Origin: an uncultured bacterium
Lineage (GTDB): Bacteria; Hydrothermota; UBA3073; NMUJ01; CBEVQO01
Length of the DNA stretch: 64,000 nucleotides
Assembly (NCBI GenBank): GCA_965552055.1
Contig: CBEVQO010000002.1
Location: forward strand, 103,229 to 167,228
Reading direction: 5' to 3'
Shown here: positions 5,555-57,974 of the stretch, piece by piece
Layout: the number at the start of each line of letters is the position of its first letter
Position numbering within the stretch: the stretch's first letter is position 1
Made by a program: the position numbers and the translations under genes
Notes under the pieces: generated by a model
What the model was told of the DNA's origin: nothing
Database searches by the model: none
What the model saw: the letters and a program-made list of their open reading frames with translations, nothing else

Positions 5555-5581
5555 ATTATAATTTGCATTTTATATTGTCAA
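5555..5581 (-). promoter_or_regulatory. sigma70-type promoter TTGACA-N15-TATAAT, GTG start 6 nt downstream
   Basis: Both consensus hexamers read directly. Confidence 0.7.
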
Positions 5582-5880
5582 GAATTCTTCCAGTGAGGAT
5601 GTGAGAGTCCCATTGTGAAAAATGTTTCAACGATATTTGCGATAAAATGCGAAAATTTGTGGGGAAATTTTAATTTGCCTTCCAGTAAGAATTCAACAGT
5701 TTCGTGAATCAATATCCCTAACTTCTCAAACACCGAGCATTTTTGAAAAATGTAAATCTTATCATAAATCCATGCACCCGTTTCCTTTTTCAATTTTATA
5801 ACCTCTCCCTTTTCATCATGCAAAATAAGATTCACATCAGTAAGAACAATTTTTAAAGGAAAGTTTATTTTCTTTTTCAT
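5578..5880 (-). CDS. Hypothetical protein with HExxE and HxxA motifs (possible minimal zincin-like)
   Basis: LIHETVEF...SHFIA; ATGA overlap with upstream gene. Confidence 0.55.
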   Translation of the reverse strand: MKKKINFPLKIVLTDVNLILHDEKGEVIKLKKETGAWIYDKIYIFQKCSVFEKLGILIHETVEFLLEGKLKFPHKFSHFIANIVETFFTMGLSHPHWKNS

Positions 5881-6257
5881 TCTCGTTGAAATTTGCCATT
5901 TTTATTTATTTCTATAAGAATTTTTTCAATTAGTTTATCAACTTCTTTAAGGCGAGACTCCTTTATTTCGAGATCATAAGGAAATCCTTCAATCCATTCT
6001 TTTAATTCATAAAGAACATCTAAAATTTGCCCATCCGCTTTTTCTTCACAATAACCAAAGATAACTTCTTTTGCTTTTTCCCACCCGTTAATAAGTACTT
6101 TCCTAAACACTCTAAGCAGGAAATCTTTTTGTTCGTCTATACTTAATGTTATATTACCTTTCTTTATATCCTCAAATATTTTGCGTAGCTTTTCACAAAA
6201 TTCAGATTCATCGCGAATGCGAAAAATCTCTTTGCAAATTTCCTTCCACTCTCTCAT
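5877..6257 (-). CDS. Hypothetical helical protein
   Basis: ORF; AAGGAGG RBS before ATG 6257. Confidence 0.6.
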   Translation of the reverse strand: MREWKEICKEIFRIRDESEFCEKLRKIFEDIKKGNITLSIDEQKDFLLRVFRKVLINGWEKAKEVIFGYCEEKADGQILDVLYELKEWIEGFPYDLEIKESRLKEVDKLIEKILIEINKNGKFQRE

Positions 6258-6297
6258 AGCTCCCTCCTTTTTCATAACATTATTACATCTCATTACT

Positions 6298-8397: not shown

Positions 8398-8495
8398 TGC
8401 TCTTATTCTCTCCTTGTTTACACTATCAAATTTTTTGTTAAGTTCTTCAAAGCGCCTCTTTTCACCAAAATCAATTTCCTCAAAAGTTACAGGTT

Positions 8496-9032: not shown

Positions 9033-9050
9033 AACCCCCCCCTTTCTTTA

Positions 9051-9713
9051 TTAAAGTTTTTCTAATAAAATATCAAAGCGCGCAATTATACTTTTTTCTT
9101 TTCTAATTTTAATGGTATAAACTTTTTTCTCAAAAAGTAAAGTTACAGGTTCTTTTGTCAATGTAGCGATTAGATTTCCATTTGCAAATAATAATGCTTC
9201 TGCATCTTCTATTGGTTTATTTTCTTCTTTGTCCTTTATTTCAATTAACTTCAGATTTATTTTATCATCTTTTGTCTGTACATCGAGTGTAACTTTTATC
9301 TTTTCTGTTTCGCTCTCAATTTTCCATGCGTTTGGCAGTTTTTTACCGCTCCGGGTAGTGATAAATGCTCTTTCTTCTATATGGGTGCTTCCGTATAACT
9401 GGCGTGTTGCTATCTGAAACAGCTTTATGGATAACAAAAGATGCAGGACAGTTGAACACATTTCTTTTTTCTTCTCTCTTTCCAGATATTTCTTTAAACT
9501 TTTCATTTCCATCACTTTGCGAAAACATGCATCACATTCTGTAAGATGCTTCTCAAACACTTCACGCAACTCATCCGGCAGAGTGCCATCAACATATCCT
9601 GCTATCCAGTGTTCGTCATACTCTTTACAATCGGGTATGGGCTCCGTTTTTCTCATCTCTCTCAATGCCCTTAAGAGCCATTCAATATCATCGTTGTCAA
9701 AATCAGGACACAT
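9051..9713 (-). CDS. zf-HC2 anti-sigma factor, soluble, beta-rich C-terminal domain
   Basis: YVDGTL...FEKHLTECDAC (HxxxCxxC); overlaps the sigma gene; no clear TM segment. Confidence 0.85.
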   Translation of the reverse strand: MCPDFDNDDIEWLLRALREMRKTEPIPDCKEYDEHWIAGYVDGTLPDELREVFEKHLTECDACFRKVMEMKSLKKYLEREKKKEMCSTVLHLLLSIKLFQIATRQLYGSTHIEERAFITTRSGKKLPNAWKIESETEKIKVTLDVQTKDDKINLKLIEIKDKEENKPIEDAEALLFANGNLIATLTKEPVTLLFEKKVYTIKIRKEKSIIARFDILLEKL

Positions 9714-10605
9714 TTTCCCTCCTTTTTATATTTTTGAATTTCTTTTCAATCTCCTTTCTTACTCTGTGAATAATCTGGTCAACATAATTACGATTTATTC
9801 CTAAAAACTCTGCTATTTGTTCATAGCAGGGTCTCCTTGCACTCTCCGGGACAGCTTTCCCCTCCTTTAAATACTTTATTATCTGCCATTCTATTTTTGC
9901 ATCCATTAAAACGAGTTCATCGGTTATTTCATCAATCCTTTTCTTTGTCAATTTCATTATGGTTAAAACTTCTCTCCTATCTTCAAGTATATTGAATTCA
10001 GGCCATAACCACAATTTAAAGACGATTCTTTTAAGAGGGGGAAGTTTCTCTATTTCTTTTCTTATTTCCCTGCAAGTCATTTCCGTTATAATTTTATTTT
10101 CTTCGGTTAGATAGCCAATCAGTCCTTTTGGAGGCTTTGTTTTAGCTCTGGTAAACTTCTTTTCTAACTCTTGCTCTCTTTTGCTTTTCTTCTCCGGAGA
10201 CAATCTTTCTTCAATCTCTTCTAAATTTTTTTCATCCATTTTAATTTCGCGTAATTTTCTTATAAGAATGCGTGGAAGCCAATTTATAAAAATTCCTGTT
10301 ATCCATGTTGTGAATTTAGCTTTTGTTCTGTGATTTGGATCGTATCGTTTTATTATTTCAAGATTTGACAATAAATAATTATAAAGGAAATCTCTGCAAA
10401 TATCTTCTTTTTCATCAGAATCTAACTCCTCGAGTATCTGGAATCCCATCTCTTCTTTTCCTCTGAGTTTACTCAAAATAATGCGTTCAATAAGTCCCTT
10501 TAAAACAGAGATATACTTGTCGAGCGCAAAAATTGCTTTTTTGCAGGCATCTAAATCACAATTATGACACTTTTCTAATTGCTCTCGTGAAACTAACTCA
10601 TTCAT
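9703..10605 (-). CDS. Divergent ECF-type RNA polymerase sigma factor
   Basis: Region-2-like EDICRDF...RYDP...KFTTWITGIFIN; region-4 HTH YEQIAEFLGINRNYVDQIIHRVRK; adjacent zf-HC2 gene. Confidence 0.78.
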   Translation of the reverse strand: MNELVSREQLEKCHNCDLDACKKAIFALDKYISVLKGLIERIILSKLRGKEEMGFQILEELDSDEKEDICRDFLYNYLLSNLEIIKRYDPNHRTKAKFTTWITGIFINWLPRILIRKLREIKMDEKNLEEIEERLSPEKKSKREQELEKKFTRAKTKPPKGLIGYLTEENKIITEMTCREIRKEIEKLPPLKRIVFKLWLWPEFNILEDRREVLTIMKLTKKRIDEITDELVLMDAKIEWQIIKYLKEGKAVPESARRPCYEQIAEFLGINRNYVDQIIHRVRKEIEKKFKNIKRRENVS

Positions 10606-10687
10606 GGTTCCCCCTTCACCTTATTTTACATCAAATACAGCGTTGTCAATATCATTTTTTATTAGTTTAGAGAAAGATGCACGCAAA

Positions 10688-10951
10688 CTATTCAAATAAA
10701 CATTTATTGTATCTTCGAGTTTGTTTATAGTGTTATCAATGTCAATAAGTGCATCTCTCATCTCTTTGAATTTTTCCTTTATCTGCTGAATTTCCACATC
10801 CCGTTTTATATATTGGAGAAAGATAGAAAGTCGATGGAGATACTAGCATAACATTCTTTTCGTAGGCGTATGCAGGCTTAATAGGTATAACTTTTCGCCA
10901 CCCGACTATTTTTATCCTGTCACAGCAATTAAATTGTTGATTCTTACCCAT
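10688..10951 (-). pseudogene. Internally deleted, frameshifted RmuC-like remnant
   Basis: Strong RBS; KVIPI joined directly to YAYEKNVMLVSPSTFY (RmuC-like motifs); +1 frame continues as coiled coil RDVEIQQIKEKFKEMRDALIDID to TAG 10688. Confidence 0.6.
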
Positions 10952-10975
10952 CTCCCCTCCTTTTGATTTGCATCT

Positions 10976-21851: not shown

Positions 21852-23036
21852 TCATTTTATACCCGCTGTGGATATGTCAAGCAATTTTTCGTCTATCTCG
21901 AATCCAAGATGATTTCTCATTCTGTATTTTTTGATGACATTTTCGCCCCTCTTTAACCCATAAAGGTCTGCCAGTGTCCATCTTTCTTTATATTTGAGGA
22001 ATTTTATTTTGTCTTCGCATCCCCAGTATTCGAGCAATTTTTTCGCTTCATCCTGAGTATGGGGACGCAATTCAATAGCTGCAAATGTCCTGCCTGCTCT
22101 CATAAATGCAGGGTCTATCTCCCTTTCGATATTGGTGGTTATTATGATGCGTGAAGGTATCTGCACTATTCCGCCTGTCAGTGAAAGGAGGTCACCTGTA
22201 ACATCAATCCCTGTTTCTTTGCGTGGCTTTACAAATTTATCGAGGTCATCGAGCAAAATTATCATACCATCTGCTACTTCTTCAAGGAAAGATAAAGATT
22301 TCAAAACAGGTTCCTGACGCACCACGAGCAATTCGTTTTTGCCTGCGAATCTGCAAACATGATGCGCAAACCAGCTTTTGCCAGTGCCACATTCACCAAA
22401 CAGGAAAAGAACAATCTCATTCGAATTAAGATAATCCTCTATAAACTGCTTTACATCACCATATTTTTCTTTAATGACAGGATATTTGAGATTCAGCTCT
22501 TCTGGTTCATCACAATGCACATATTGTTTGAACCATAATGATTTGGGCTCTCCGAAATCTCGCTCTACAACCATAATTTTCACATTTATTCTTATGTATT
22601 TGGGTTTGACTTTATCCTTAACTTTGTATTTTTTTAGCCATTTTTCAATTTTCTTTCCAAAGATTTCTTCTGCTTCTTTACTGCAGAAAAATGCAAAGAT
22701 ATCAACAATTGCTACTTTGTTTTCCGCAACTTCCATTCTGAAGAAACAATTAGCAAATCCTTTAAGAGAAGGAAATGTCACCATAACATCGTAACCTCGA
22801 CCTTTATTTACTATTATTTCCCTTTCTTTATCCAGTTTCTTCATCTCCTCATCGAATTCTTTAAAGAATTTCTCTTCGGAACATGATACCATCATTGAGA
22901 TTCTTCTCGTAAATAAGTTCTTGTTTGCGTCAAGGAGTTTCAACAGCTTTATCACTCTGTACTGTCTTAAAAAGCTATTTACAGGCTCAATATCGTCTAT
23001 ATCTAAATTTATCTGAAATTTATCTTTTAGAGTCAT
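21852..23036 (-). CDS. AAA+ ATPase with uncharacterised N-terminal domain
   Basis: GECGTGKS, ILLDDLD, IIITTN, IDPAFMRAGR. Confidence 0.85.
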   Translation of the reverse strand: MTLKDKFQINLDIDDIEPVNSFLRQYRVIKLLKLLDANKNLFTRRISMMVSCSEEKFFKEFDEEMKKLDKEREIIVNKGRGYDVMVTFPSLKGFANCFFRMEVAENKVAIVDIFAFFCSKEAEEIFGKKIEKWLKKYKVKDKVKPKYIRINVKIMVVERDFGEPKSLWFKQYVHCDEPEELNLKYPVIKEKYGDVKQFIEDYLNSNEIVLFLFGECGTGKSWFAHHVCRFAGKNELLVVRQEPVLKSLSFLEEVADGMIILLDDLDKFVKPRKETGIDVTGDLLSLTGGIVQIPSRIIITTNIEREIDPAFMRAGRTFAAIELRPHTQDEAKKLLEYWGCEDKIKFLKYKERWTLADLYGLKRGENVIKKYRMRNHLGFEIDEKLLDISTAGIK

Positions 23037-28767: not shown

Positions 28768-29989
28768 AATCTATTTTCAAAATTGTCCAGTCATTTCTCC
28801 TGAAAGGTTTTTTACTCGTAGTCAAAAGCAATTTTCTTTTCGCATTTATATTAAGATATTTTTTCCACTCATTTCCATACCATTCCCCATCCGTAAGAAT
28901 TACAAGCATATCATGTGGTTTTATAACTTTTTTAACTTCCTTTAAAGCTTTTGTAGGGTCTGTTCCACCTCTCCCTCTTATCTTGAATTTTGTTTCACTA
29001 TTTTTTACCTTTTGCAAACCGTAGAAATCAACATCCCAGCATCCCCAGTAAACTTCTGCATCCTTATTCATAGTTTTTATCTCAGCCATAAACTGTTCAA
29101 GTTCAGCATGCCCGATACTACCGCTTGTATCTACGAGTACATAAACTTTACCTTTTCCCAAATATAATTTGCCTTTGACATCGGGAACTTTTCTGCTCGG
29201 ACGCTTCCATGTTGATACACAAAAATGAGATATCCATTCACGGAAATATGTACGCAAAAATCTCTTCCAGTTTATCTTGCTTTTGTCTTTTGCATCCACA
29301 ACCTCTTCCATCTTTGCTGCTACATTGCCAGCACTCTTCAGCGCTTCTGTTATACCCCGCCTAATTTCATCAAGGTCTATATCTTCAAATTGATTTCCCA
29401 CACCTGCTCCCTCTTCACATTCTTCCATATCTTCATCTACTTCAATAACTTCAGGTATGCATCCACTTGATAAACATTCCAGTAAATCCCAATCTACTTC
29501 TTTTAATCTACCTCGACATTTTTTTACAATCTTTATCTCATGAATCTTCACTACTTCGGCGAGTTTTAAATAAATTTGTTCTGTTGTCATTTTCTCTATT
29601 TGCTGTGGAGAAAAGCCAGTTAATCCTTCAATGATTCTCGCTGTTTGCATATCCTTCGTCTTTAAACCGAGTTTTGACATTATTGCATTCACTTTACAAT
29701 CTGCTGCAAGATTCCACAATAATCTATTTCTTTTATCCATAAATTTCAATCTTAAAGGATGTTCAAGAATATAATGGAAGAAAACATGCAAAAAATTTAT
29801 GCATTCTTCTCCTGTGCTTAACCTCTCGGGGTTTACCCTTATTATCCTGCCATCTGTCTTTACAGGTGTGTCCATTTCTCTATCTTCTACAACTGCTTTT
29901 TCAACCCTGTATAATGCTGGCAAAAGAAAATGTGCTTTGGAAACCGTTAATAATTGCCTTACCTTTTTAATTAATGTTGCGGTATCCAT
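28763..29989 (-). CDS. DUF2201-type vWA protein with degenerate peptidase motif
   Basis: KTDG, FLHVFFHYILEH (no catalytic Glu), WNLAADCKVN, VDTSGSI, GRGGTD. Confidence 0.87.
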   Translation of the reverse strand: MDTATLIKKVRQLLTVSKAHFLLPALYRVEKAVVEDREMDTPVKTDGRIIRVNPERLSTGEECINFLHVFFHYILEHPLRLKFMDKRNRLLWNLAADCKVNAIMSKLGLKTKDMQTARIIEGLTGFSPQQIEKMTTEQIYLKLAEVVKIHEIKIVKKCRGRLKEVDWDLLECLSSGCIPEVIEVDEDMEECEEGAGVGNQFEDIDLDEIRRGITEALKSAGNVAAKMEEVVDAKDKSKINWKRFLRTYFREWISHFCVSTWKRPSRKVPDVKGKLYLGKGKVYVLVDTSGSIGHAELEQFMAEIKTMNKDAEVYWGCWDVDFYGLQKVKNSETKFKIRGRGGTDPTKALKEVKKVIKPHDMLVILTDGEWYGNEWKKYLNINAKRKLLLTTSKKPFRRNDWTILKIDL

Positions 29990-30001: not shown

Positions 30002-31108
30002 CTATGTTGCGATTAACTCATCTGCGGATTCAATTCTACTGCTCAATAATTCTCTAAGTTCTACATGCATTATCTGGAGTATCTTCTCTATCTCATCTTT
30101 TTTCCATCCTTTTAAAATTGCGTGCAATGTAACTACAAGAAATTCTTTATTTCTTTTCAGCATGCGTAGCAGGATTTTATTTTCAACTTCTTTATACCTG
30201 TCTGGATGTTTCCTCACCCACATTGCCACATGGAAAGCAAAATTATATAATTTATCTATTGAATTTATCGTATGTAGTTTTAGCGGATTCTTCAAAATAT
30301 CTTCAACCGATGGTATCCTATATCTCGTTGATAAGAAAAAGTTACTCCCCACTTCTCCTCCCAGGAATGCCTGACAATCTGCTTCAGTGAAATCCGGATT
30401 GTTATTCAGGAAGCAGGATAAAAGTGTCCAGCTTCTAGGTGTAGGATAAGGTTCTGATGTTGCTCCTTTTTGCGGTGGCAGATAAAAATGCTCCGGATGT
30501 TTCAATAAATAAGTGGCGACATAGTGATTGAGGCGACCCTTCTCTGTTTCATAAGAAATCCATTCTTTAACACTTACATGCTCCACCTCATATATGGCTG
30601 CACGGTTCATTATCGGAGTGGCTAACTCCGTTGCTACTTCGCTGTATTCGGGTGGATTACCCGCACCTATAACCATCACATCTTTATGAAGCTTTAGCCA
30701 TCCAACTCTTTTATCGAGTAACAATTTAAACAAAATGCTCTGCACATCCGGGCGAACGGTATTTGAGATTTCATCAAGGAAAAGCACACCGGGATGTTGA
30801 CCCAAAGCTCTCAGAGGTCTGTTATATTTGAAAACTATGCCGTCAGAAGTTTCACGGGGAATAAAGAAATCTTCGGGAGTAACTTCATACAATCTCATAT
30901 CCAGAAGTATAAATGCATTCTTTAAATCTCCTTCTGTAAGCCTATCATCCCATTCCACAAAGTTCAGTCCCAATTTCTCTGCTTTCTCCCTGGCAAACTC
31001 CCTAACCTGTTCGGATTTGCCGATGCCAGGTCCACCAAAGAATATCACCGTCCCGGGAAAATGTTTATGCAGGGTTTCTTTTATCTCATTTACCTTGATT
31101 TTAACCAT
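30002..31108 (-). CDS. MoxR-like AAA+ ATPase (paralog of 26575-27708)
   Basis: GGPGIGKS, LFLDEI, GAGNP, PTPRSW. Confidence 0.88.
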   Translation of the reverse strand: MVKIKVNEIKETLHKHFPGTVIFFGGPGIGKSEQVREFAREKAEKLGLNFVEWDDRLTEGDLKNAFILLDMRLYEVTPEDFFIPRETSDGIVFKYNRPLRALGQHPGVLFLDEISNTVRPDVQSILFKLLLDKRVGWLKLHKDVMVIGAGNPPEYSEVATELATPIMNRAAIYEVEHVSVKEWISYETEKGRLNHYVATYLLKHPEHFYLPPQKGATSEPYPTPRSWTLLSCFLNNNPDFTEADCQAFLGGEVGSNFFLSTRYRIPSVEDILKNPLKLHTINSIDKLYNFAFHVAMWVRKHPDRYKEVENKILLRMLKRNKEFLVVTLHAILKGWKKDEIEKILQIMHVELRELLSSRIESADELIAT

Positions 31109-31134
31109 ATCACCCCCTTATGCTACTTCATTAA

Positions 31135-31163
31135 TATTTACCCTCTTTTACAAATTTCTTACA
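31135..31163 (-). promoter_or_regulatory. Candidate ECF promoter TGTAAG-N16-GTAAATA at the head of the island
   Basis: Same -35 and spacing as the other copies; upstream of first island gene. Confidence 0.6.
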
Positions 31164-31201
31164 AATTTTTGTTGACAAAAGAATAATTTGTTTAATATTC
31201 T

Positions 31202-32884
31202 GTGATGAAATTCAAATTTTTAATGCTTCTTCTTTTACCATCTGTGTTATTTGCGAGAGAGTTAAAAGATTATTTATTAGAGATTTCTTCTGCAATACCG
31301 CTTTCCATTCGTGGTAAGAGACTCGCTGTTATAAATTTTTACGATAGATATTACAAACAAAGAAGAATCTTATCAAAAGAAATAGAATCAATTTTTTCAG
31401 GCATTCTTGTTGATAAATTTAAAGTTGTTGAAAGAGAAAGGATAAAAGACATAATAAAAGTTTTACAGGTTGAAATGCAACCCATTTTTGATGAATCCAC
31501 CGTCGTCAAAATAGGCAAACTCGCAGGTGCTGAATTGCTGTTAACAGGGGATTACAAAGTGGACGAAAAAGAAATCATTTTAAGGACAAAAATTATAGAA
31601 CTTAAATCCGGAATCGTTGAATTTGACAAAAAAATTGAACTACCCCGTAATTGCGTGGATTACGAGATGCTGGGATTCGAAAAAGTACCACTACCTGAAC
31701 GCAAATTGAGGTTAACGATGTTTAAACCCGAAGGCAACATCTCACAAAACATCCTCGACGAAATAAAGAACAGAGCACTTCATATATTATCGGAGTGCAA
31801 GAAAATTCAATTTGTAGAACCATGGGCTGAACATGACCTCGAAATATCAGTAAAGATAAACAAAGCACCTGAAAGAAAAATACAGGGAGAAAATGAAAAA
31901 GTACCAATTGATGGCTTTACAATAAATGTAAGTATGAAAAATTTAAAGACAGGAGAAGTTAAGATGAGCAAAGCTGTAACAGTCCTCGAAGAAGATATCG
32001 TAAATGCTGTGTTAAACTCTTTAAAAATTTTCCTGAACGAAATAACTGTAGCAGGCGGGATAAAGCGTGTGGAAGATAAAACTGCGTTCTTAAATATCGG
32101 AAGAAATAACGGCGTTGATAAAAACCAATATTTTTATATAAAAGACCCAATGGGTGATATCGCAGGTAAATTGATAATCGAAGAAGTAAGCGAAAATTCA
32201 GCAAAAGGCAGAATAATTGAAGGTAAAGATATCTTCGCAGGATATGCGACAGAACTGATGCCAGATAAAGAAGAGAAAAAGAGATTGGAAAAAGAACTTG
32301 CGATCATGGAAAGAAAATATGAAAATGCCATCCAAAAATACATATCAGAATGGATAAGATTTCACTCACCCAAAAGCAGGATAAAACTATTTGCGGGATA
32401 TGGACATTATTTTGATAAACAACAGGATGAATCCTTCAACTATGTTGAGCTTATTCCCAATATTTACGGAGGTGCGGTATTCTTTGGCAACCATCCTAAT
32501 TTTCACCTATTTTTGAAATATTGCTATTTAATGACATCAGACAGCATGCATTCTCAAAATATAACTTCGCATTCCGGTACCATTGGAGGTAGATTTCAGT
32601 TTGCGTTTTCACTTTCTTCGATTAAAATTTCCCCTTATTTAACACTGGGAATAGGAGGCGGTTACTTCACATATACCGAATCTTCGTGGCAGGATGAATG
32701 GTGGGCTGTGCTGTGCGATGTAACAGGCGGAGTAGAATTTGTACATGCTTCACAAAAGGGCATCTTCTTACAATATTATGTAATGAAAAGATTGTGGAAA
32801 AGCGAACCCCAGATTACTTCTCTCTCCAATTTTAAAGAAGATTTCGGTGCAATAATTTTCGGTATATCAATCTGGTTCAAATGA
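31202..32884 (+). CDS. Exported CsgG/FlgO/FlgT-like protein with probable C-terminal beta-barrel
   Basis: Signal peptide; LAVINF..FKVVERE..KIGKLAGAELLLTG; LNIGRNNGV FlgT-C-like; terminal GISIWFK. Confidence 0.65.
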   Translation: MMKFKFLMLLLLPSVLFARELKDYLLEISSAIPLSIRGKRLAVINFYDRYYKQRRILSKEIESIFSGILVDKFKVVERERIKDIIKVLQVEMQPIFDESTVVKIGKLAGAELLLTGDYKVDEKEIILRTKIIELKSGIVEFDKKIELPRNCVDYEMLGFEKVPLPERKLRLTMFKPEGNISQNILDEIKNRALHILSECKKIQFVEPWAEHDLEISVKINKAPERKIQGENEKVPIDGFTINVSMKNLKTGEVKMSKAVTVLEEDIVNAVLNSLKIFLNEITVAGGIKRVEDKTAFLNIGRNNGVDKNQYFYIKDPMGDIAGKLIIEEVSENSAKGRIIEGKDIFAGYATELMPDKEEKKRLEKELAIMERKYENAIQKYISEWIRFHSPKSRIKLFAGYGHYFDKQQDESFNYVELIPNIYGGAVFFGNHPNFHLFLKYCYLMTSDSMHSQNITSHSGTIGGRFQFAFSLSSIKISPYLTLGIGGGYFTYTESSWQDEWWAVLCDVTGGVEFVHASQKGIFLQYYVMKRLWKSEPQITSLSNFKEDFGAIIFGISIWFK

Positions 32885-33639
32885 GGGGATGCTTTACATT
32901 TATACTGGGACTGATAATAGGTGCTCTTGGATTTTATTTCTTCCTGAACAAAGGGTACGGCAATTTGAAGAGAGATGTTAAAATAGCAATTAAAAAATGG
33001 AAAGGCGAAGAAATTTATACAAAACCCTCTTATACCCATAAAACGAAAAAAAGAAAAAGAAGCAAACATAAAAAGAAAGAAAAAGTCCGGAAAAAATTTG
33101 ATTTAAAAGAGAAAATTACGATAGCTTGGCAGGATAGTTTAAAAAATTTGAGAAAAAGAATAAAATGGCTCACGGATGATAAAGAAGAAAAAATAGAGTG
33201 GTTTTACAAAAGAAAAGAAGAGATAAAGGAGAAGCTCGCGCACAAATGCGGGATTGGTGTCGATAAATTTGATAGATTTATAAGAAAAAACATTTACAAA
33301 GCATGGCAGGATAGTGTAAATAAATTGAAAAAAGCAATAGGTGAATGGCCAACAGAGGAACAATATAAATGGTTTGAAAACAGGAAAAATGTAATAAAAG
33401 CAAAATTGTCAAAAGTTATTGGAATAACACAACAAAAATTTGATAAATTGATAAATCAGAACTTCTATAAAGCATGGGTTGATAGTTTAAAGGAAATAAA
33501 AAATAAAATGAAATGGCTGACAGAGGAAAAAGAAAGGGAATATAAATGGTTTAAAAGCAGAAAAGAGGAAATAAAGCGGAAACTTGCAAAGAAATATGGA
33601 CTTACTTTAAAGCAACTCGAAGATTTACTTAAACGCTGA
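32881..33639 (+). CDS. Membrane-anchored basic protein with three ~57-aa internal repeats
   Basis: N-terminal TM; AW(Q/V)DS...W...WF..RK..IK.KL...G three times. Confidence 0.7.
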   Translation: MRGCFTFILGLIIGALGFYFFLNKGYGNLKRDVKIAIKKWKGEEIYTKPSYTHKTKKRKRSKHKKKEKVRKKFDLKEKITIAWQDSLKNLRKRIKWLTDDKEEKIEWFYKRKEEIKEKLAHKCGIGVDKFDRFIRKNIYKAWQDSVNKLKKAIGEWPTEEQYKWFENRKNVIKAKLSKVIGITQQKFDKLINQNFYKAWVDSLKEIKNKMKWLTEEKEREYKWFKSRKEEIKRKLAKKYGLTLKQLEDLLKR

Positions 33640-33999
33640 ATGAATTAAAATTTCTACCATCGGCATCTCTGGTGAGCGTGGATTTGGTATTACCCTCTTT
33701 TTACTCATATCAACTATCAGGTCTAACTGCTCAAGTATTATTTGACCTACAAGAGGCTGAGTGCCTTCGGGCTCTGCCAGAACATTAAATTCACCTGCCC
33801 TGCCACATAACTCCACTGTTACAATGCCATAAATCGATTTCGTTTTTACTTCTCGCATTTTCCTTAGATTTAACTTGTTGATAATATTTTGTGGTAAAAC
33901 TAGCATCGTTGCTCCTGTGTCAATAACACCTTCTACCTCTACTTTCTTCTCGGGTTCAAAAACATTTATAATTTTTATTTTCTCAACCACTTTTCCCAT
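33625..33999 (-). CDS. Clan AA (retropepsin-like) aspartic protease, possibly with a short internal deletion
   Basis: IDTGATML, LVGQIILEQLDLIVD. Confidence 0.82.
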   Translation of the reverse strand: MGKVVEKIKIINVFEPEKKVEVEGVIDTGATMLVLPQNIINKLNLRKMREVKTKSIYGIVTVELCGRAGEFNVLAEPEGTQPLVGQIILEQLDLIVDMSKKRVIPNPRSPEMPMVEILIHSAFK

Positions 34000-34095
34000 T
34001 TTATTCCTATTAATTATAATCTTCTCTTTAAAATGTCAAGCCAAAATTTATATAGTTGCAGTCAACCCGAGCTTGGACGATTAAAATTTTTAAAT

Positions 34096-34260
34096 TTTTA
34101 ATGCGAGGCGTAGCCGAGCACATTACATATGGGTTGATATGTCAGCCCATTACGGGTTTTGGGTTATAGCAGGGGATTCTGGCTTTATCCTCTGTCTGCG
34201 TATTTCAGCGATAGGAGTGGGCTGACTTAATCGGGAAGGTGGGGACAGCGGAGGCGGGGC
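34096..34260 (+). repeat. Dispersed structured element, copy 1 (hairpin, IR-bounded variable core, G-rich end)
   Basis: Both ends match the reverse complement of 46081-46331; inner IR GTCAGCCCA 34141-34149 / TGGGCTGAC 34218-34226. Confidence 0.8.
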
Positions 34261-34269
34261 TAAAAATAT

Positions 34270-34296
34270 TTGACAAAAATTAAAATTGAATAAAAT
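34270..34296 (+). promoter_or_regulatory. mnmG promoter TTGACA-N15-TAAAAT, ATG 5 nt downstream (probably leaderless)
   Basis: Read directly; no RBS. Confidence 0.7.
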
Positions 34297-34301
34297 AAAG
34301 T

Positions 34302-38456: not shown

Positions 38457-38633
38457 ACCCTCCTTACCAATTATAAACATTTCACAAGGGTGTCAATTAA
38501 AAATTAAACCGGAATCTCAATTCTCCTTAATTCATAAGTGCAAATGCTTCGATAGCAAGTAATGCAGATAAATATCTTTTGCATTATTAAAATACTTCTT
38601 TGACATCTCAATCGCAAAATGTCAAGTTAAAAC

Positions 38634-38660
38634 TTGACAGAGCAACAAATTGATTAAAAT
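38634..38660 (+). promoter_or_regulatory. glyQ promoter TTGACA-N15-TAAAAT, ATG 5 nt downstream
   Basis: Read directly. Confidence 0.7.
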
Positions 38661-43647: not shown

Positions 43648-46034
43648 ACTATATTCAAAAGCTTGCCCTTCACATAAATTATACGCTTTATCTCTTTACC
43701 CTCTGTAAATCTTTTAACATTCCAGTGAGAAAGCGCTTTCTCCTTAATTTCTTCTTCCCCAGCATCAGCAGGTACCTCAATCTCACCCCTTACCTTGCTA
43801 TTCACCTGCACCACTATTTTTATCTTTTCTTCTTTTATCTCTTTGTAAGATGGCCATTCTGTTCTGAAAACAGATTCTTTTTTGCCAATTTTATGCCACA
43901 GTTCTTCTGCTAAATGCGGTGCAAAAGGTGCTAAAAGCTTTATATAGTTGAAAAGCGCCCAGCCAAAAGCAGGGTCACTATCTTTACCCTGTAATTCGTT
44001 CAAAAATTCCATAAGAGAAGCAATTCCCGTATTCAAACCAAAATTCTCAATCTGTTGGGTTATTCTCTTTATATATTTATGGGTCAATCTGTAAACAGGA
44101 CTATCAACATCGGGTTCCCTTTCTGTAACTTTATCAATGTTTTGCTCAAAGAAGTTAAATAACCTTCTTATAAATCTCCTTGCTCCTGTTACATTCTTAT
44201 CCATCCAGATTCCATCTTTATCAGGCGGTCCCATAAACAAAATAGCAAGACGGGCTACATCCGCTCCTTCTTTCTCAACAAAAGGACCAACTTCAACTAC
44301 ATTTCCCTTTGACTTCGACATAACCTGACCCTTCTCATCCTTTACCATACCCTGATTGAACAACTTTATGGCTGGCTCATCAACATTAACCCAGCCTTTA
44401 TCATAAAGGAACTTTGTCATAAAACGGAAATAAAGAAGATGACCCGTAGCATGCTCAGCACCACCTATATAAAGGTCTATCGGCATCCAGATTTTCACTT
44501 TCTCAGGTTCAAACGGCTTTTTGTCATTTTTAGGGTCAATGTATCTCAGGAAATACCAGGACGAACACATAAATGTATCCATGGTATCTGTATCACGCTT
44601 CGCCTCTCCTCCACATTTTGGACATTTCGTATTCACAAACTCAGGAACAGATGCAAGTGGAGATTTGCCCCGTGGTGCATAATCTTTTACTTCAGGAAGC
44701 AAAACAGGTAAATCTTCTTCGGGCACAGGAACGATTCCACATTTTTCACAATAAATTATAGGAATAGGTGCACCCCAGTATCTCTGACGGGAAATGAGCC
44801 AGTCCCTCAACCTGTATGTTACCTTTTTGCGACCAAATCCCTTTTCATTAAACCACTCTATAAGCTGCGGTATCGCTTCTTCAGATGTTTTACCCGTAAA
44901 CTCACCCGAATTTATCATTATGCCCTTTTCAGTAAAAGCACCATTAGAAAAATCCCATTCGCCTTCCTTTGGCTTTATAACCTGTTTCACAGGAAGATTA
45001 TATTGCTGGGCAAACTCAAAATCTCGCTGATCATGAGCAGGCACACCCATAACAGCTCCTGTGCCATAAAGAGGCAATACATAATCCGCAACATAAAGAG
45101 GCACTCTTTCACCATTCACAGGATTAATGACATATTTCCCGGTAAAATAGCCATTCTTCTGAAATTGACGCTCATATTCAGGACGCCTTAAAACATCTTC
45201 AATAAATCTTGAAAGTCCAGAATCTTTTTTAGAAAGCTCAATCGCAACTGGATGCTCAGGTGCAATTGCAAGAAATGTGACACCAAAAACGGTATCAGGA
45301 CGGGTGGTGAAAACAGATATTTTACCACCATCAAATTCAAAATCAATTTCTGCACCTTCACTCCTTCCTATCCAGTATTCCTGCATTCTTTTTATCTCAT
45401 CTGGCCAGTCTTTTAACTTTTTAAGGTCATTTAATAACCTTTCGGCATAAGCAGTAATCTTTATAAACCATTGATTTAGAGATTTTTTACCAACCTGAGA
45501 GCCACACCTCCAGCATCTACCTTCTATAACCTGCTCATTCGCAAGAACTGTCTGACAGCCAGGACACCAGTTGACATAAGCCTCTTTCTTATAAGCAAGT
45601 CCACTCTTATACAACTGCAAAAATAACCATTGCGTCCACTTATAATAATCGGGATTGCAGGAAATAACTTCCCTGTCCCAATCATAACTTATACCAACGA
45701 GTTTCAAACTTTTCCTTGATTTCTCAATGTTATTCATGGTCCACTCACGGGGATGTATTCCCCTCAAAATAGCAGCATTCTCGGCAGGCAAACCAAAAGC
45801 ATCCCAGCCCATGGGATGTAAAACCTGATAACCCCTCATCCACTTATAACGAGCAATGGTATCACCTATCACATAATTCCTCAAATGTCCCATATGCATA
45901 TCACCGGAAGGATAAGGAAACATACAGAGCAAATAAAATTTCTTCTTCGGATTGTCAGAAACTTTAAAAATACCTTCACTCTCCCAGAATTCCTGCCACT
46001 TCCTTTCTACCTCTTTAAAATCATACTTCTCCAT
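43638..46034 (-). CDS. leuS: Leucine-tRNA ligase
   Basis: MFPYPSG HMGH, WLISRQRYWG, VMSKS. Confidence 0.98.
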   Translation of the reverse strand: MEKYDFKEVERKWQEFWESEGIFKVSDNPKKKFYLLCMFPYPSGDMHMGHLRNYVIGDTIARYKWMRGYQVLHPMGWDAFGLPAENAAILRGIHPREWTMNNIEKSRKSLKLVGISYDWDREVISCNPDYYKWTQWLFLQLYKSGLAYKKEAYVNWCPGCQTVLANEQVIEGRCWRCGSQVGKKSLNQWFIKITAYAERLLNDLKKLKDWPDEIKRMQEYWIGRSEGAEIDFEFDGGKISVFTTRPDTVFGVTFLAIAPEHPVAIELSKKDSGLSRFIEDVLRRPEYERQFQKNGYFTGKYVINPVNGERVPLYVADYVLPLYGTGAVMGVPAHDQRDFEFAQQYNLPVKQVIKPKEGEWDFSNGAFTEKGIMINSGEFTGKTSEEAIPQLIEWFNEKGFGRKKVTYRLRDWLISRQRYWGAPIPIIYCEKCGIVPVPEEDLPVLLPEVKDYAPRGKSPLASVPEFVNTKCPKCGGEAKRDTDTMDTFMCSSWYFLRYIDPKNDKKPFEPEKVKIWMPIDLYIGGAEHATGHLLYFRFMTKFLYDKGWVNVDEPAIKLFNQGMVKDEKGQVMSKSKGNVVEVGPFVEKEGADVARLAILFMGPPDKDGIWMDKNVTGARRFIRRLFNFFEQNIDKVTEREPDVDSPVYRLTHKYIKRITQQIENFGLNTGIASLMEFLNELQGKDSDPAFGWALFNYIKLLAPFAPHLAEELWHKIGKKESVFRTEWPSYKEIKEEKIKIVVQVNSKVRGEIEVPADAGEEEIKEKALSHWNVKRFTEGKEIKRIIYVKGKLLNIVCA

Positions 46035-46044: not shown

Positions 46045-46071
46045 ATTATATCTATTTTTCGATTTTGTCAA
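46045..46071 (-). promoter_or_regulatory. leuS promoter TTGACA-N15-TATAAT
   Basis: Read directly. Confidence 0.7.
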
Positions 46072-46080
46072 GTATTTTTT

Positions 46081-46331
46081 GCCCCGCCTCCCAGTCCCCA
46101 CCTTCCCATGTGCACACCCCGAGCACAGCACAAGCACCATTAACCCTTTCAACGCACTTCTCACACCTTTCCCGTAATAAGTCAAATTCCCAACCAAACC
46201 ATTGCCACACTCAAAAACCACCTAAGCACTTTAAAAGCCCTATCCTCCAACAAAATGCGGTTCAGCTTATGTGCTCGGGGTGTGACAAAAGACCCTTATG
46301 TAACAGGCTCGGCTACGCCTCGCATTAAAAA
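46081..46331 (-). repeat. Dispersed structured element, copy 2
   Basis: Ends match 34096-34260; inner 15-bp perfect IR CACACCCCGAGCACA 46113-46127 / 46270-46284. Confidence 0.8.
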
Positions 46332-46369
46332 CTTTACCCTTGACATTTTCTGTTTTTTGTTATAATGTT

Positions 46370-47023: not shown

Positions 47024-47081
47024 AAATCCAAAAATTGTTGACAAACTCACATCAAGATTAAAATTAATGAGGGAGGGGAGT

Positions 47082-51788: not shown

Positions 51789-51879
51789 CTTTTATTATAA
51801 TCTTGCTACAAAAAAGTCAAGATAAACTTCGGAAATTTCTTTTGAAAAATTTGAAAAATTCACCTTTAGAAATGGGTCA

Positions 51880-51920: not shown

Positions 51921-51968
51921 TAAACAAAATAAAACCTTGACAAAATCATATGGGGAATAAAAATTAAT

Positions 51969-53995: not shown

Positions 53996-55086
53996 TTTTA
54001 GCATTTATCTTAAGTGCTACAGTTGCAGGAATAGTGGGAGAAAAAGGAACAGGCATTCTATTATCCAATGCATCGATTTATATAAACAATAAACTTGTGG
54101 CAAAAAGCGATATAAATGGATTTTTCACATTAACACAGATAGACACAGGCGAATATATCTTCACTGTTAAATTAAAAGGTTACAAAGAATTCAGCCAGAA
54201 AATAAAAATTAAAGAAGGCATGAATAACATCGTTATCCCACTGGAAAAAATCAAAACAAAATTACCCTATCGGCTTAAAAGAGTCGCAATCATTATCTCT
54301 AAAAAAATAAAGGCATATGAAGAAATGAAAAAGGGATTCGAATCAACCTGTGCAGGAGAATTCGATGAATTTACATTGCAAAATGGAAAAATACCAAAAT
54401 TTAATCCCGAAAAATACGATTTATTATGCGCAATAGGAACGGATGCTGTGAATGCAATTAAAAAATATGAAAAACCAAAAATATTTATAGGGGTGCTAAA
54501 TCCTTCAAATGAACTGAAAAAATATAAATTCACAGGAGTAAGTATAAACATAGATTATGGCGAAATAATAAGAGCAACGAAAAATCTATTGCCTTACATG
54601 AAAAAAGTATGCATAATTTACAAAGATATAAATCCTGATTTGATAAAAGAAATCAAAAATGCAAAAGACATTGTGGGTTTTGAGTTGGTTGAATACAAAG
54701 TAAAAGACCTGAAAGAAGCAAAGAAAATTCTTAACAGAATAAATGATATTGATGTTTATGTAATGATGCCCGATGAGTTGAATTTATCTTCAAAATATTT
54801 TGATTATCTTTTAAAAAAGAGTTATGAAAAAGGTTTTCACATAGTTGGTTTATCTGAGAAATTCGTTGCGAAGGGTGGGAGCTTTTGTCTGTGGGTCGAT
54901 ATGGAAGATATGGGAAGACAGGCTGGAGAACTTGCAAATGAAATCTTACTGGCAGAAACAAAACCAGAAGAATTGCCATTTGAAAAAGTAAGAAAAACCA
55001 AATTGATAATAAATTTAAAAACATTCAAAAAATTAAACACAAAAATCCCGGAAATCTTTATTAAGAAAGCATACAAAATTTATTGA
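53992..55086 (+). CDS. Carboxypeptidase-regulatory-like domain fused to an ABC_sub_bind-type ligand-binding domain
   Basis: SDINGFF...GEY...GY; AIGTDA, TGVS, MGRQAG, LIINLK. Confidence 0.75.
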   Translation: MILAFILSATVAGIVGEKGTGILLSNASIYINNKLVAKSDINGFFTLTQIDTGEYIFTVKLKGYKEFSQKIKIKEGMNNIVIPLEKIKTKLPYRLKRVAIIISKKIKAYEEMKKGFESTCAGEFDEFTLQNGKIPKFNPEKYDLLCAIGTDAVNAIKKYEKPKIFIGVLNPSNELKKYKFTGVSINIDYGEIIRATKNLLPYMKKVCIIYKDINPDLIKEIKNAKDIVGFELVEYKVKDLKEAKKILNRINDIDVYVMMPDELNLSSKYFDYLLKKSYEKGFHIVGLSEKFVAKGGSFCLWVDMEDMGRQAGELANEILLAETKPEELPFEKVRKTKLIINLKTFKKLNTKIPEIFIKKAYKIY

Positions 55087-55896
55087 TTATTCAAAAATTA
55101 TCCTGTTTTTATAATTTTTGACATCAACAGAATCTATGGGTGTAAATTTCTTAATAAAAGCACAAACAGCATTTGTGTAAAATCTTCTGGTATCAAACTT
55201 CTTTTCGTCAGGCATCTTTTCTATTGCAATGAAATCATCTCCACCGATAAATGCAATATAATCGTTTATAAGGATATTGTAGGAAGAGTCAGGATGAACT
55301 AATTTACCATTTATCTTTATGGAATCTATCCTTTCTCCTTCTCTTATTATTTCAAAACCTGTTGGGTCGATTTCTTGAGCAGGCTTCAATGTATCGATGA
55401 AGACCTGAACATTATATGATACCTGTAAAAAACCACCTTTACCGATACACGCTGCACTACGCTCAAATATGCTCTTTAACTCACTACCACTTACATTGCG
55501 TAATAAAACTATGCGATTGCTGAAAGGCAAAACTCCTTTAACAAAGGAGTCGGTTATCGGAAAGTTCTCCGTGCGAACAGTACCAGGTGGCAGATAGTCG
55601 TGTAACCTTATTCCACCTGAGTTTTGTAATGCACAATCTATCCTCAAAGTATCTTTAAAAATGCTATCATTTGCATACCATAATACAGCATCACATATAA
55701 TATCACCCAATAAATTTTCACCTCGTCGGAGTACCTCTCGCCTGCCATCTAACATTGTATCAACAACGATGTAGCCAAGAATATCACCTCGGGGAACAAT
55801 TTCACCTGAATACTCAACAACAGGAACAGGTGTCTCCTTACAACATAACACCATTATCAAAAATAATATTATCGAAAGCTTAGAACGCATAACCAA
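55087..55896 (-). CDS. 5'-nucleotidase C-terminal domain lipoprotein
   Basis: RRGENLLGDIICDA, NSGGIR, LPFSN, GFLQVS, GGDDF. Confidence 0.85.
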   Translation of the reverse strand: MVMRSKLSIILFLIMVLCCKETPVPVVEYSGEIVPRGDILGYIVVDTMLDGRREVLRRGENLLGDIICDAVLWYANDSIFKDTLRIDCALQNSGGIRLHDYLPPGTVRTENFPITDSFVKGVLPFSNRIVLLRNVSGSELKSIFERSAACIGKGGFLQVSYNVQVFIDTLKPAQEIDPTGFEIIREGERIDSIKINGKLVHPDSSYNILINDYIAFIGGDDFIAIEKMPDEKKFDTRRFYTNAVCAFIKKFTPIDSVDVKNYKNRIIFE

Positions 55897-57895
55897 CCCT
55901 TATCAGGAACATACTACCGGGTTGAATTAATCCTTTTTTGCCGAATACATCGATGTTTGATGTCTCAACAGGGTCAGAATATTTCCGCATAATCTGTAAG
56001 TTTATCATACTTATTTTTAAGAATAAATTGTTCATGGAATGCAGGAAAGCGATACCTGTTTCCAGATAAGGAGGGATGCTTGCAGTATGCAGACGCTCAA
56101 GCTCCATCCTCCTGTTGGAAGTAAGGGTATCAAGGTAGTTACCATAATTTATCGTCCACCTTATAATTGTTCTTTTTCTTATGCGAAAATCAATCCCTGC
56201 ATTTATTCTCAAACGAGGTATATTACGCAACCAGGTGCCATCCCATGCTTTTATCGCATAAAGATAGGGCTCACCAAGTTCCCTATTCCAGTAGAAGACA
56301 GAATTAAACAACGAAAGGTTTAAAAATAAACCTGTATTAAAAAGCATACCCCTGAGCTCAAAAGCACCTCCATAAGATTTAACATCTCCTATATTTTTGT
56401 AATAGCCAAGCTGACCGCCACCATGAGGGTCAAAAGCCCTTATACAGCCAGACAATTCGCTGTAAAATCCGTTAACCCTTATTTTTAACTTTAAAAGACG
56501 ATAGGTTATTGAAGCCTCATAAGTCCTTATCAATTCAGGTGATAATGTGCTGTCACCCCATATTGCATCCACACCAGTATTACTCCTGTCATAAAGTTCT
56601 TTAAAGGTAGGAGCCCTGAATGCCTGTCCAAACAGCAATTTAATTGAAAGTGGCTTAACAGGAGTAAAAACAAGACCAACACGGGGATTTATCGGTGATT
56701 TTTCGACATCACTGTATTTGTCAAATCTAAAACCAAGAGTCAATCTCATTAGATGTGTTCTGTAACATTTTTGCAGATAAAAAGCAAATACTTTGCGCGA
56801 ACGACCCGATTGAGGAAAAGTAAGACTATCCCAATTGCCAAATTCCCCCATATATTTATCACCTATAATACAATAATTGCGAAGAATTTTAAATTCAGGT
56901 AGCGATAAATACTCAAATTGCACACCAAGAAGCACATCCAATTTATCAGATATGCGATAAAATAGACGCTCCTCAATGCCTCCTGAAATCTCCTTATATT
57001 TTTCATGAGTAAATTTGCCATCAGCAAATGTATCCCTGCTCAAAGGACTTATATAGCCCGAAGGAACTTCCTGCCATAATAAATCCCTTCCCATAAAATC
57101 AAAATATATACGGGTAAGTGAATGAATATCCTCAAAATCTTTGATAAATTGTAAATCGCACAGTAAATTACCGAATTTTAAACGAGAATCTGGTGCACAA
57201 ACAAAAACAGGACCAACATAAGCACCCCTCTCACGATAATGCGATAAAAACATAAACCTTAAATTTCTACCAGTATAATCAAATTTTGAGAAAATCTCAG
57301 AGAGATTCCTCTTTGTATAAGCCGAATCCTTCTCGATAAATTCTTTAAAACCATCAGAATGCGATAATTTTGTGAACATCCTCATGCCTTTAAATTTAGC
57401 CTTTATAAGATTTTCAACCGTATAATTGTTTCCTCCACTTATTGCGAAAGTATTTTTATAAAGTGTATCTGTGATTATATTAATTACTCCGCATAAAGCA
57501 TCTGTGCCAAAAATTGCAGAACCAGGACCCCTTATCACCTCTATTCTCTCAATAAATTCAACGGGCAAATCAAAAATAGCTCCCCCTGTGTAAAAGTCAT
57601 TAACTCTGTGACCATCGATAAGAAGCAGTATCTCGCCAGGTGTGCGCTGACCACGCAGAGCAACACGCCATTCACCATCACTACCCATGCTAACCTCAAT
57701 ATCCGGAATGGTTTTCAAAACATCTATCAGGGTATAACAGGGCAAACGCAAAATGTCTTCTTTACGCAATACCGTTATCACTGCAGGCGCTTCCTCTATG
57801 GGCTCGGGCTTCAAAGTGGGAGACACTACCTTTAACTCTTCCTGAGTAAATAACTCAAGCTCACTGATAGCAAGAAATACAAATACAAGCATCAT
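55880..57895 (-). CDS. TonB-dependent receptor
   Basis: Plug LLLIDG, IERIEVIRGPGSAIFG, GVINIIT; FRAPT; terminal YAF. Confidence 0.92.
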   Translation of the reverse strand: MMLVFVFLAISELELFTQEELKVVSPTLKPEPIEEAPAVITVLRKEDILRLPCYTLIDVLKTIPDIEVSMGSDGEWRVALRGQRTPGEILLLIDGHRVNDFYTGGAIFDLPVEFIERIEVIRGPGSAIFGTDALCGVINIITDTLYKNTFAISGGNNYTVENLIKAKFKGMRMFTKLSHSDGFKEFIEKDSAYTKRNLSEIFSKFDYTGRNLRFMFLSHYRERGAYVGPVFVCAPDSRLKFGNLLCDLQFIKDFEDIHSLTRIYFDFMGRDLLWQEVPSGYISPLSRDTFADGKFTHEKYKEISGGIEERLFYRISDKLDVLLGVQFEYLSLPEFKILRNYCIIGDKYMGEFGNWDSLTFPQSGRSRKVFAFYLQKCYRTHLMRLTLGFRFDKYSDVEKSPINPRVGLVFTPVKPLSIKLLFGQAFRAPTFKELYDRSNTGVDAIWGDSTLSPELIRTYEASITYRLLKLKIRVNGFYSELSGCIRAFDPHGGGQLGYYKNIGDVKSYGGAFELRGMLFNTGLFLNLSLFNSVFYWNRELGEPYLYAIKAWDGTWLRNIPRLRINAGIDFRIRKRTIIRWTINYGNYLDTLTSNRRMELERLHTASIPPYLETGIAFLHSMNNLFLKISMINLQIMRKYSDPVETSNIDVFGKKGLIQPGSMFLIRVGYAF

Positions 57896-57974
57896 AAAAA
57901 AATAATCATCATCTCAAATTGTCAATAGAAAATTTTTATCCTTGACAAATCAAAAATATAGTTAAAATAAAAGG

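Follow-up and report, generated by a model that had tools for sequence, protein, structure and literature searches.

The distance between the -35 and -10 boxes of sigma-70 promoters, 17 ± 1 base pairs (bp), counts as one of the constants of bacterial transcription, and promoter predictors hard-code spacers of 16–18 bp. Whether this constant holds everywhere is the question raised by the DNA analysed here (hereafter the window), a stretch of 64,000 nucleotides (nt) from an uncultured bacterium of the Hydrothermota (GenBank assembly GCA_965552055.1; G000:C2:103229-167228, where G000 is the source genome and C2 the contig). An earlier reading of the letters alone (the sequence-only reading) had pointed to 13 promoter-like sites in which the two boxes, TTGACA and TAnnnT, are separated by 15 nt (N15). 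All 13 were present where it had placed them and on the same strands, 12 with TTGACA and one with TTGACT (51794-51820(-)), as was a site with a 16-nt spacer (N16), which it had noticed upstream of 1224 and which lies at 1233-1260(-). Exact matches to TTGACA-N15-TAnnnT numbered 15 in the window, versus 0.92 expected from 100 dinucleotide-preserving shuffles (s.d. 1.01, maximum 3), none of which reached 15. The results described below suggest, with a probability that we put at about 0.7, that the N15 sites are the principal housekeeping promoters of this organism, that they belong to the sigma-70 family and that their optimum spacer is 15 bp.

G000 comprises 2.23 Mb in 15 contigs (35.6% G+C, 97% complete). 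The genome-wide histogram of spacings, which the sequence-only reading had named as a check, peaked at 15 and not at 17. For TTGACA followed by TAnnnT, 416 sites were counted at N15, versus 32, 45, 93, 106 and 48 at N13, N14, N16, N17 and N18, respectively, about 50 at each unrelated spacing and 26 in a reversed-pattern control. When the -10 box was restricted to TATAAT, the counts from N13 to N18 were 2, 7, 121, 27, 7 and 4. A large share of the N17 sites of the looser pattern can be N15 sites read two bases on, an overlap to which no count is attached, because TATAAT followed by nT also fits TAnnnT and T occupies that position in about 39% of cases. In an assay anchored on the -10 box, with no -35 box demanded, 369 sites of the form TAnnnT-N5-ATG opened an open reading frame (ORF) of at least 80 amino acids (aa), and TTGAC was found at N15, N16 and N17 in 107, 16 and 6 cases, respectively. 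The excess at N15 amounted to 364 sites above background for perfect TTGACA, the sigma-70 -35 hexamer, and the promoter class is put at about 360–420 sites in G000. No N15 excess was detectable among sites with one mismatch to TTGACA (717 versus a background of 747). Since the excess is confined to the perfect hexamer, the -35 box is almost invariant. The spacing peak at 15 falls outside the 17 ± 1 bp that characterize sigma-70 promoters.

The motif lies in front of genes for stable RNAs as well as protein-coding genes, many of the latter being the first in their operons. Two tandem N15 promoters were found 99 and 32 nt upstream of the 16S rRNA gene. In 19 of the 46 tRNA genes the -10 box of an N15 site ends 6–18 nt before the mature 5' end, and in 17 of these 19 the distance is 6–9 nt (for example C1:19590-19681, C2:24485-24560 and C3:32313-32384); three more tRNAs sit downstream within the same units as promoter-bearing tRNA genes. 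For the 17, the precursors would therefore carry 5' leaders of only 0–3 nt. An N15 promoter at C1:36217-36243 ends 4 nt before the match to RNase P RNA. This RNA, a short match of 278 nt (C1:36248-36525, 171.8 bits), is still present despite the short tRNA leaders. Within the window, the genes behind the motif include mnmG, glyQ, alr, leuS and genes for a GTPase and a TonB-dependent receptor.

Wide use of leaderless mRNAs had also been proposed by the sequence-only reading, and sequence statistics of the 416 sites strongly support it. In 217 of them, an ORF of 60 aa or longer begins 4–7 nt past the last T of the -10 box. Offsets of 5 and 6 nt account for 127 and 58 starts, respectively, versus about 8 for each other offset; the start codons recorded at 4–7 nt were ATG (111), GTG (46) and TTG (4). 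A Shine–Dalgarno (SD) core occurs within 120 nt in 173 of the other 199 sites, and the 3' end of the 16S rRNA retains CACCTCCTT, so the anti-SD is kept. Five genes of the window, singled out earlier for start codons 5–6 nt past the -10 box, do show this leaderless geometry: mnmG (promoter TTGACA/TAAAAT, 34270-34296(+); ATG at 34302, 5 nt past the box), glyQ (TTGACA/TAAAAT, 38634-38660(+); ATG 38666, 5 nt), alr (TTGACT/TATAAT, 51794-51820(-); ATG 51788, 5 nt), a gene for a protein with CHAT and TPR domains (TTGACA/TATAAT, 5555-5581(-); GTG 5548, 6 nt) and a transglutaminase-like gene (TTGACA/TAAAAT, 57942-57968(+); ATG 57975, 6 nt). With start codons at 5–6 nt, mature tRNA 5' ends at 6–9 nt and the match to RNase P RNA at 4 nt, all counted from the -10 box, the geometry would suit start sites 6–8 nt past that box. 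Start codons also form a minor second peak, with 35 sites at 17 nt and 20 at 18 nt from the -10 box, as at 10605-10649(-) in the window; this class suggests leaders of about 11–12 nt that carry a G-rich, SD-like stretch.

The spacing was then compared across the phylum. The order to which G000 belongs is represented in the collection by four genomes, G000, the single genome from which family f1 is known, and three members of family f2 (G001, G002 and G003; 0.9–1.4 Mb; 99, 87 and 66% complete); the other families of the class that were compared are f3, which includes G004, and f4, with eight genomes including G013. Comparison of related genomes, another check named by the sequence-only reading, gave an N15 peak in all three other members of the order and peaks at 17 or 16–17 in the other families of the class. 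Whole-genome counts at N14, N15, N16 and N17 were 19, 99, 46 and 26 for G001, 19, 89, 35 and 20 for G002, and 9, 62, 27 and 14 for G003, with reversed-pattern controls of 9–19. G004 gave 205 sites at N16 and 178 at N17, and G013 gave 59 and 336, respectively. For TTGACA followed by TAWAAT, G000 holds 253 sites at N15 and 17 at N17, versus 0–3 and 146–265 in the eight f4 genomes. In the remaining 29 sampled relatives N17 mostly exceeds N15, with an exception in f3 (N15 counts of 16, 12 and 7 versus N17 counts of 4, 4 and 8). Over 272 genomes of the phylum, TTGACA-N15-TAWAAT reached 253 copies in G000 and 16 in the runner-up. The f4 relatives are comparably strict about the -35 hexamer, at N17. 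Leaderless geometry was found at 52% of the sites in G000, versus 8% in G001, 2% in G004 and 8% in G013 (samples of 399, 400 and 290 kb for the last three), so that the predicted leaderless habit is specific to G000 among the genomes compared.

The anatomy of the promoter was derived from a logo of the 416 sites, which reads as an A/T-rich tract, C, TTGACA, AA.T.A.ATTTTGAT, TA(A/T)AAT and AA..(G)ATG(G). The C directly before TTGACA is present in 50% of the sites, and the -10 hexamer, which conforms to TAnnnT, has A in 80% and 72% of cases at its fourth and fifth positions; spacer sequences vary from one site to another. Written for comparison, the G000 logo is aaaatttt.c-TTGACA-aa.t.a.attttgaT-TAaAAT and that of G013, an N17 genome, is aa.atttt.C-TTGACA-aa.....attTtTaTg.-TATAAT, the latter being a classical TRTGn extended -10 promoter. 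Common to both are the upstream A/T tract, C-TTGACA-AA flanks and a T-rich spacer with a G near its end; this G precedes the -10 T by three bases in G000 and by two in G013, and the G000 spacer is two bases shorter. The f2 promoters have a TAtnTT -10 box, a G before TTGACA and SD-bearing leaders.

Which sigma factor reads these promoters? G000 encodes an RpoD of 575 aa (C7:57373-59097; L002:499-2226) that is intact and contains all Pfam sigma-70 regions. Its gene has its own SD and is preceded by a reading frame that ends just before it, dnaG-like when read by eye, which would make this the C-terminus of dnaG in a dnaG-rpoD operon. The protein is divergent: its score against the TIGR02393 model (RpoD_Cterm) is 288 bits, below the cut-off of 354 bits, and apart from the self match (1229 bits) no identity above 35% across most of the length was reached among 5.8 billion proteins (298 bits). 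Alignment with 29 relatives located the changes. Region 2.4 reads RQQIMK in G000 and RQAI[S/T]R in all 29; region 3.0 reads RVYRIPPHMSN versus RTIR(V/I)PVHM(I/L)E, a change that drops the glutamate with which E. coli sigma-70 reads the TG of extended -10 boxes. Region 3.2 has gained one residue at each of two positions and region 3.0/3.1 has lost one, changes absent from the relatives, and the -35-reading motif TRERIRQIE of region 4.2 is retained. The altered region 3.0 agrees with the loss of the canonical TGn box from the promoters, although the two amount to a single event in a single lineage.

A second candidate is a short sigma factor of 272 aa, encoded in G000 between htrA and an M23 peptidase gene, which scores best with the RpoS, RpoD-family and RpoH models, under every cut-off. 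It was found in 41 of 41 genomes searched, including those of the N17 families, mostly with the same htrA neighbour; the G000 and G001 proteins are 49% identical and have the same gene neighbours. Both sigma factors of G000 keep the R-E-R..RQ residues of region 4.2. The three f2 genomes yielded no match to G000 RpoD at E ≤ 1e-40 and none to Sigma70_r1_1, which has one match each in G000 and G013. Each f2 genome gave one match to TIGR02393 and two to Sigma70_r2, corresponding to a 275-aa RpoS/RpoH-like sigma and a 175-aa extracytoplasmic function (ECF) sigma. Thus, f2 appears to lack a group-1 sigma altogether. The short sigma of f2 also lies beside htrA (for example at locus L096:1378-2205). 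In 18 relatives no consistent autoregulatory N15 promoter was found before the htrA-sigma operon, where htrA mostly follows another gene. Length of the short-sigma linker was rejected as the determinant of spacing, since the f4 linker is the shortest and linker length does not track spacing.

An altered sigma2–sigma4 geometry had been put forward by the sequence-only reading, with indels in RpoD or in the RpoB flap as its possible signature. Provided that sigma4 and sigma2 make their usual contacts, with TTGACA and TAnnnT respectively, such a geometry is a logical consequence. The RpoD part of the proposal is matched by the insertions in region 3.2; the flap part failed, as the tip helix had no indel in 28 RpoB sequences aligned around the flap tip, and no indel in beta was common to the order. 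A deletion after the beta flap was discarded as a cause because it occurs in N17 families too and so does not track spacing. Alignment of 26 beta-prime N-termini (zipper, zinc domain, lid and clamp helices) revealed no indel common to f1 and f2. A private four-residue insertion is present in G000 beta-prime shortly before the clamp helices (LALGEVKDR versus I..-ET in 25 relatives; C1, L258/L259), the element on which sigma region 2 docks.

Combined, these observations suggest a mechanism in which the holoenzyme would hold sigma regions 4 and 2 about 2 bp closer along the DNA than E. coli-type enzymes do. Transcription would start about 6 nt past the last T of the -10 box, which at about half of the promoters would be the first base of the start codon, ATG or GTG, giving leaderless mRNAs, and for many tRNAs would fall within 0–3 nt of the mature 5' end. 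Of the possible readers in G000 the divergent RpoD seems the likeliest, given the likeness between G000 and f4 promoters together with a remodelled but intact RpoD. The RpoS/RpoH-like sigma of 272 aa may read the same promoters too, because its counterpart is the sole non-ECF sigma left in f2, which also uses N15; the f2 data indicate that housekeeping promoters of the N15/N16 type are within the reach of the short sigma. Extended to the whole class, and offered tentatively at somewhat less than even odds, the picture is that the 17-bp spacer is not fixed by RNA polymerase and that its optimum seems to have shifted, from 17 (f4) by way of 16–17 (f3) to 15 (the order of f1 and f2), a sequence of steps that is assumed, without a tree. 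The f2 family would have dropped its group-1 sigma and run on the 275-aa sigma, and G000 would have remodelled RpoD in regions 2.4, 3.0 and 3.2 and acquired a compressed promoter (spacer 15, discriminator 5), with most first-gene mRNAs and many tRNAs made without a 5' leader.

Several points weigh against this account. Function as promoters, start positions and the lack of leaders are predictions from sequence, and the ORFs of G000 were defined by a crude rule rather than by a gene finder. Family f1 is known from one genome, and its RpoD, odd features included, stands without a close relative among the 5.8 billion proteins. The two residues added in region 3.2 offer no obvious way to draw sigma4 closer, and neither beta nor the beta-prime N-terminus contains an indel common to the N15 order. 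Furthermore, f2 reads N15/N16 promoters without RpoD, and the RpoD changes are therefore not the general cause of the shift within the order.

The f2 genomes also supply an argument for a different assignment, overlapping the account above in all but the identity of the reader, in which the 272-aa sigma is the chief reader of N15 sites, having taken over housekeeping transcription throughout the order, and the RpoD of G000 is a sidelined or re-purposed relic. These genomes are N15-peaked yet hold just the short sigma and one ECF sigma. The unusual divergence of G000 RpoD (288 versus 354 bits, no close relatives) and its region 2.4, in which M-K resembles the L/F-K of short sigmas and not the S/T-R of other RpoDs, point in the same direction, and short spacers are known from group-3 sigmas, among them sigma-28 and sigma-32. 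However, the short sigma is also present in the N17 families, where the N15 class is absent (0–3 sites in f4). The promoters of G000 share their upstream tract, C-TTGACA-AA flanks and TAWAAT box with those of f4, for which RpoD is the presumed reader; the promoters of f2, by contrast, differ in their TAtnTT box and the G before TTGACA. In addition, G000 RpoD is intact, with complete Pfam sigma-70 regions, and lies behind the dnaG-like frame with its own SD. On balance, dominance of the short sigma seems to us unlikely, though it has to be taken seriously. Far less credible is that the 15-bp class arose by chance, or as copies of a dispersed repeat instead of independent promoters: none of the 100 shuffles reached the window count, the reversed pattern gave 26 sites versus 416, spacers vary from site to site, and the sites are oriented toward genes at fixed distances, so that this explanation is practically negligible.

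Other alternatives accept the sites as promoters. The register might be misread, with the true contacts 17 bp apart because the real -10 box lies two bases downstream or because sigma4 reads nCTTGA two bases upstream. Shifted hexamers can indeed be written, given the C at -1 of TTGACA in 50% of sites and the A/T-rich bases after TAWAAT. A -10 box moved two bases downstream would, though, lack the TA...T pattern and end 3–4 nt before start codons and 4–7 nt before mature tRNA 5' ends, leaving too little room for a start site; these distances fix the -10 register. At the other end, the N17 relatives carry the identical C-TTGACA-AA context and both sigmas keep the region 4.2 R-E-R..RQ residues, making a register artefact very improbable. 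Hardly more probable is a mode in which the apparent -10 box is read partly as duplex upstream of the melted region, so that the spacer seems short while sigma4 is unmoved. In a study of Staphylococcus aureus sigma-B, the -10 element is described as read partly in double-stranded form by sigma2 and sigma3, upstream of melting, with sigma2, sigma3 and sigma4 fixed on RNA polymerase (PMC11156646). The remodelled region 3.0 of RpoD and the spacer G, one base further from the -10 box, would be in keeping with such a mode; it predicts more distant start sites, however, whereas start codons here begin 5–6 nt past the motif, and the motif is a canonical TAWAAT and not a G-rich box. Finally, growth at high temperature and reverse gyrase could alter the twist of the DNA enough to bring the two boxes into line across a shorter spacer, with the enzyme unchanged. 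Reverse gyrase was detected in G000, G001 and G002 (1094–1294 bits, above the cut-off) and not in G004 (N16/17) or G013 (N17), and in E. coli spacer length is linked to supercoiling sensitivity. Three other genomes with reverse gyrase, G026, G038 and G029, nevertheless have 20, 28 and 26 sites at N17 versus 2, 0 and 2 at N15, and Thermotoga combines reverse gyrase with 17-bp spacers. GyrA is present in G000, G001 and G002, and two bp correspond by our own estimate to about 70 degrees of twist, far above thermal or supercoiling effects over 21 bp. The N17 excess in reverse-gyrase genomes means that topology or temperature alone is insufficient for the shift, and we give this explanation very little credence. 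As regards its distribution, reverse gyrase was found in 6 of 41 phylum genomes sampled (G000, C4:82901-86113; G001, C59; G002, C58; G026; G029; G038), where it probably marks several separate hot-environment lineages; the G026 gene has an in-frame TAG or is split.

The remaining sites of the window show a wider range of distances to the start codon. The N16 promoter (TTGACA-N16-TATAAT, 1233-1260(-)) precedes a gene for the GTPase, with MMR_HSR1 and TGS domains, whose ATG at 1224 lies 8 nt past the -10 box. Behind N15 sites, leuS (TTGACA/TATAAT, 46045-46071(-)) starts with ATG at 46034, 10 nt past the box, and distances of 13 nt were found for a small gene resembling clan-AA aspartic proteases (TTGACA/TATAAT, 34013-34039(-); ATG 33999) and for a gene encoding a secreted protein with a type IX secretion system (T9SS) tail (TTGACA/TATAAT, 38470-38496(-); ATG 38456), where AAGGAGGG lies between box and start. 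Two ORFs with no family match can start at two positions each, 3 and 6 nt past the box: one of 560 aa (TTGACA/TAATAT, 31172-31198(+); GTG 31202, ATG 31205) and one of 217 aa (TTGACA/TATAAT, 46340-46366(+); ATGATG 46370/46373). A FIST-domain gene (ORF from 47067) follows the site TTGACA/TAAAAT at 47038-47064(+), after which comes GAGGGAGGGG; given the latter, its true start may lie further downstream than 47067. The TonB-dependent receptor gene (ATGATG 57895/57892) has a promoter, TTGACA/TATTTT at 57899-57925(-), that stands back to back with the one at 57942-57968. Divergent pairs of this kind are frequent (57899-57968, 38470-38660, 34013-34296 and 46045-46366), and in the closest pair the -35 boxes are separated by 16 bp only. 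Three extra exact matches were also recorded: 21854-21880(-), at the junction of two same-strand ORFs, a possible internal promoter or chance; 29674-29700(+), antisense to a minus-strand ORF, an antisense promoter or chance; and 33897-33923(-) (TTGACA/TAGTTT), within ORF 33625-33999 and probably due to chance.

The site TTGACA/TAAAAT at 10623-10649(-) serves a gene (9703-10605(-)) with ATG at 10605, 17 nt past the -10 box after a short G-rich leader. Its 300-aa product matches a sigma-70/ECF model weakly (42.2 bits, cut-off 42.9) and has no Pfam match. Around 31000-34300, next to mnmG, GC skew and AT skew flip sign and gene orientation changes from minus to plus. This region looks like a replication origin; DnaA boxes numbered 26 in the window versus 19 expected, an enrichment that is not significant. 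With records of its own lineage excluded, the closest relatives of RpoB share 45–52% identity with it and come from the Fibrobacteres–Chlorobi–Bacteroidetes (FCB) group and other metagenome-assembled genomes, mostly Zixibacteria, Ignavibacteria and KSB1, and T9SS sorting domains are present among the window proteins. On the basis of both features the lineage would fit an alliance with the FCB group.

The occurrence of the same hexamers at 15 and at 17 bp within one class amounts to a natural swap experiment on the determinant, in sigma or core, of spacer selectivity. If the N15 sites are indeed the principal promoters, natural variants would pinpoint the basis of that selectivity. A canonical group-1 sigma, as the f2 genomes suggest, may be dispensable for bacterial life. 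Standard tools for predicting promoters and gene starts will go wrong on G000, because half of the first genes lack a ribosome-binding site.

Set beside canonical sigma-70/sigma-A promoters (TTGACA-N17-TATAAT), including the high-information ones of f4, the G000 promoters are alike in their hexamers, A/T upstream tract, flanks, T-rich spacer with a G, housekeeping placement and the region 4.2 that would read them; they differ in an optimum of 15 and not 17, in a spacer G three and not two bases before the -10 T, and in a discriminator of about 5 nt. A 2026 preprint surveying 49 genomes found the median spacer to be 17 in each of them, with 99.2% of promoters at 16–18; it calls the spacer 'essentially fixed' and limits its predictor to 16–18 (10.64898/2026.09.23.753901). 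Another study takes 17 as the optimum across 49 species (PMC12641261). A literature search brought up no 15-bp optimum, either for a housekeeping sigma or for a principal promoter class, although supplementary per-genome or per-phylum spacer tables of the preprint might list exceptions. Spacers shorter than 17 are a likeness to promoters of alternative sigmas, such as the spacer of about 14 bp given for sigma-B (PMC11156646), and a short sigma of group-2/3 type may be involved in G000. Unlike the promoters of sigma-B, sigma-28 and sigma-32, which have their own hexamers and limited regulons, those of G000 carry the sigma-70 consensus and serve rRNA, tRNA and several hundred units. The -10 box fixed 5–7 nt before first-gene starts, with no SD there and an anti-SD kept for other genes, recalls the leaderless genomes assigned to group C by GeneMarkS-2, reportedly Actinobacteria and Deinococcus-Thermus. 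In contrast to group C, the leaderless promoters of G000 add a near-invariant -35 box at 15 bp, extend to tRNA genes and are confined to one family. In the Bacteroidota a short primary sigma reads -33/-7 promoters (TTTG ... TAnnTTTG); the lineage studied here resembles the Bacteroidota in its FCB alliance, its T9SS cargo and, in f2, a short sigma without region 1.1 as sole principal sigma, whereas the G000 -35 box is TTGACA and not TTTG, and TAWAAT is followed by A/T and no TTTG. As judged from these comparisons, the G000 promoter is a putative lineage-specific variant of the sigma-70 promoter in which a 15-bp spacer is coupled to leaderless mRNAs and nearly leaderless tRNAs.

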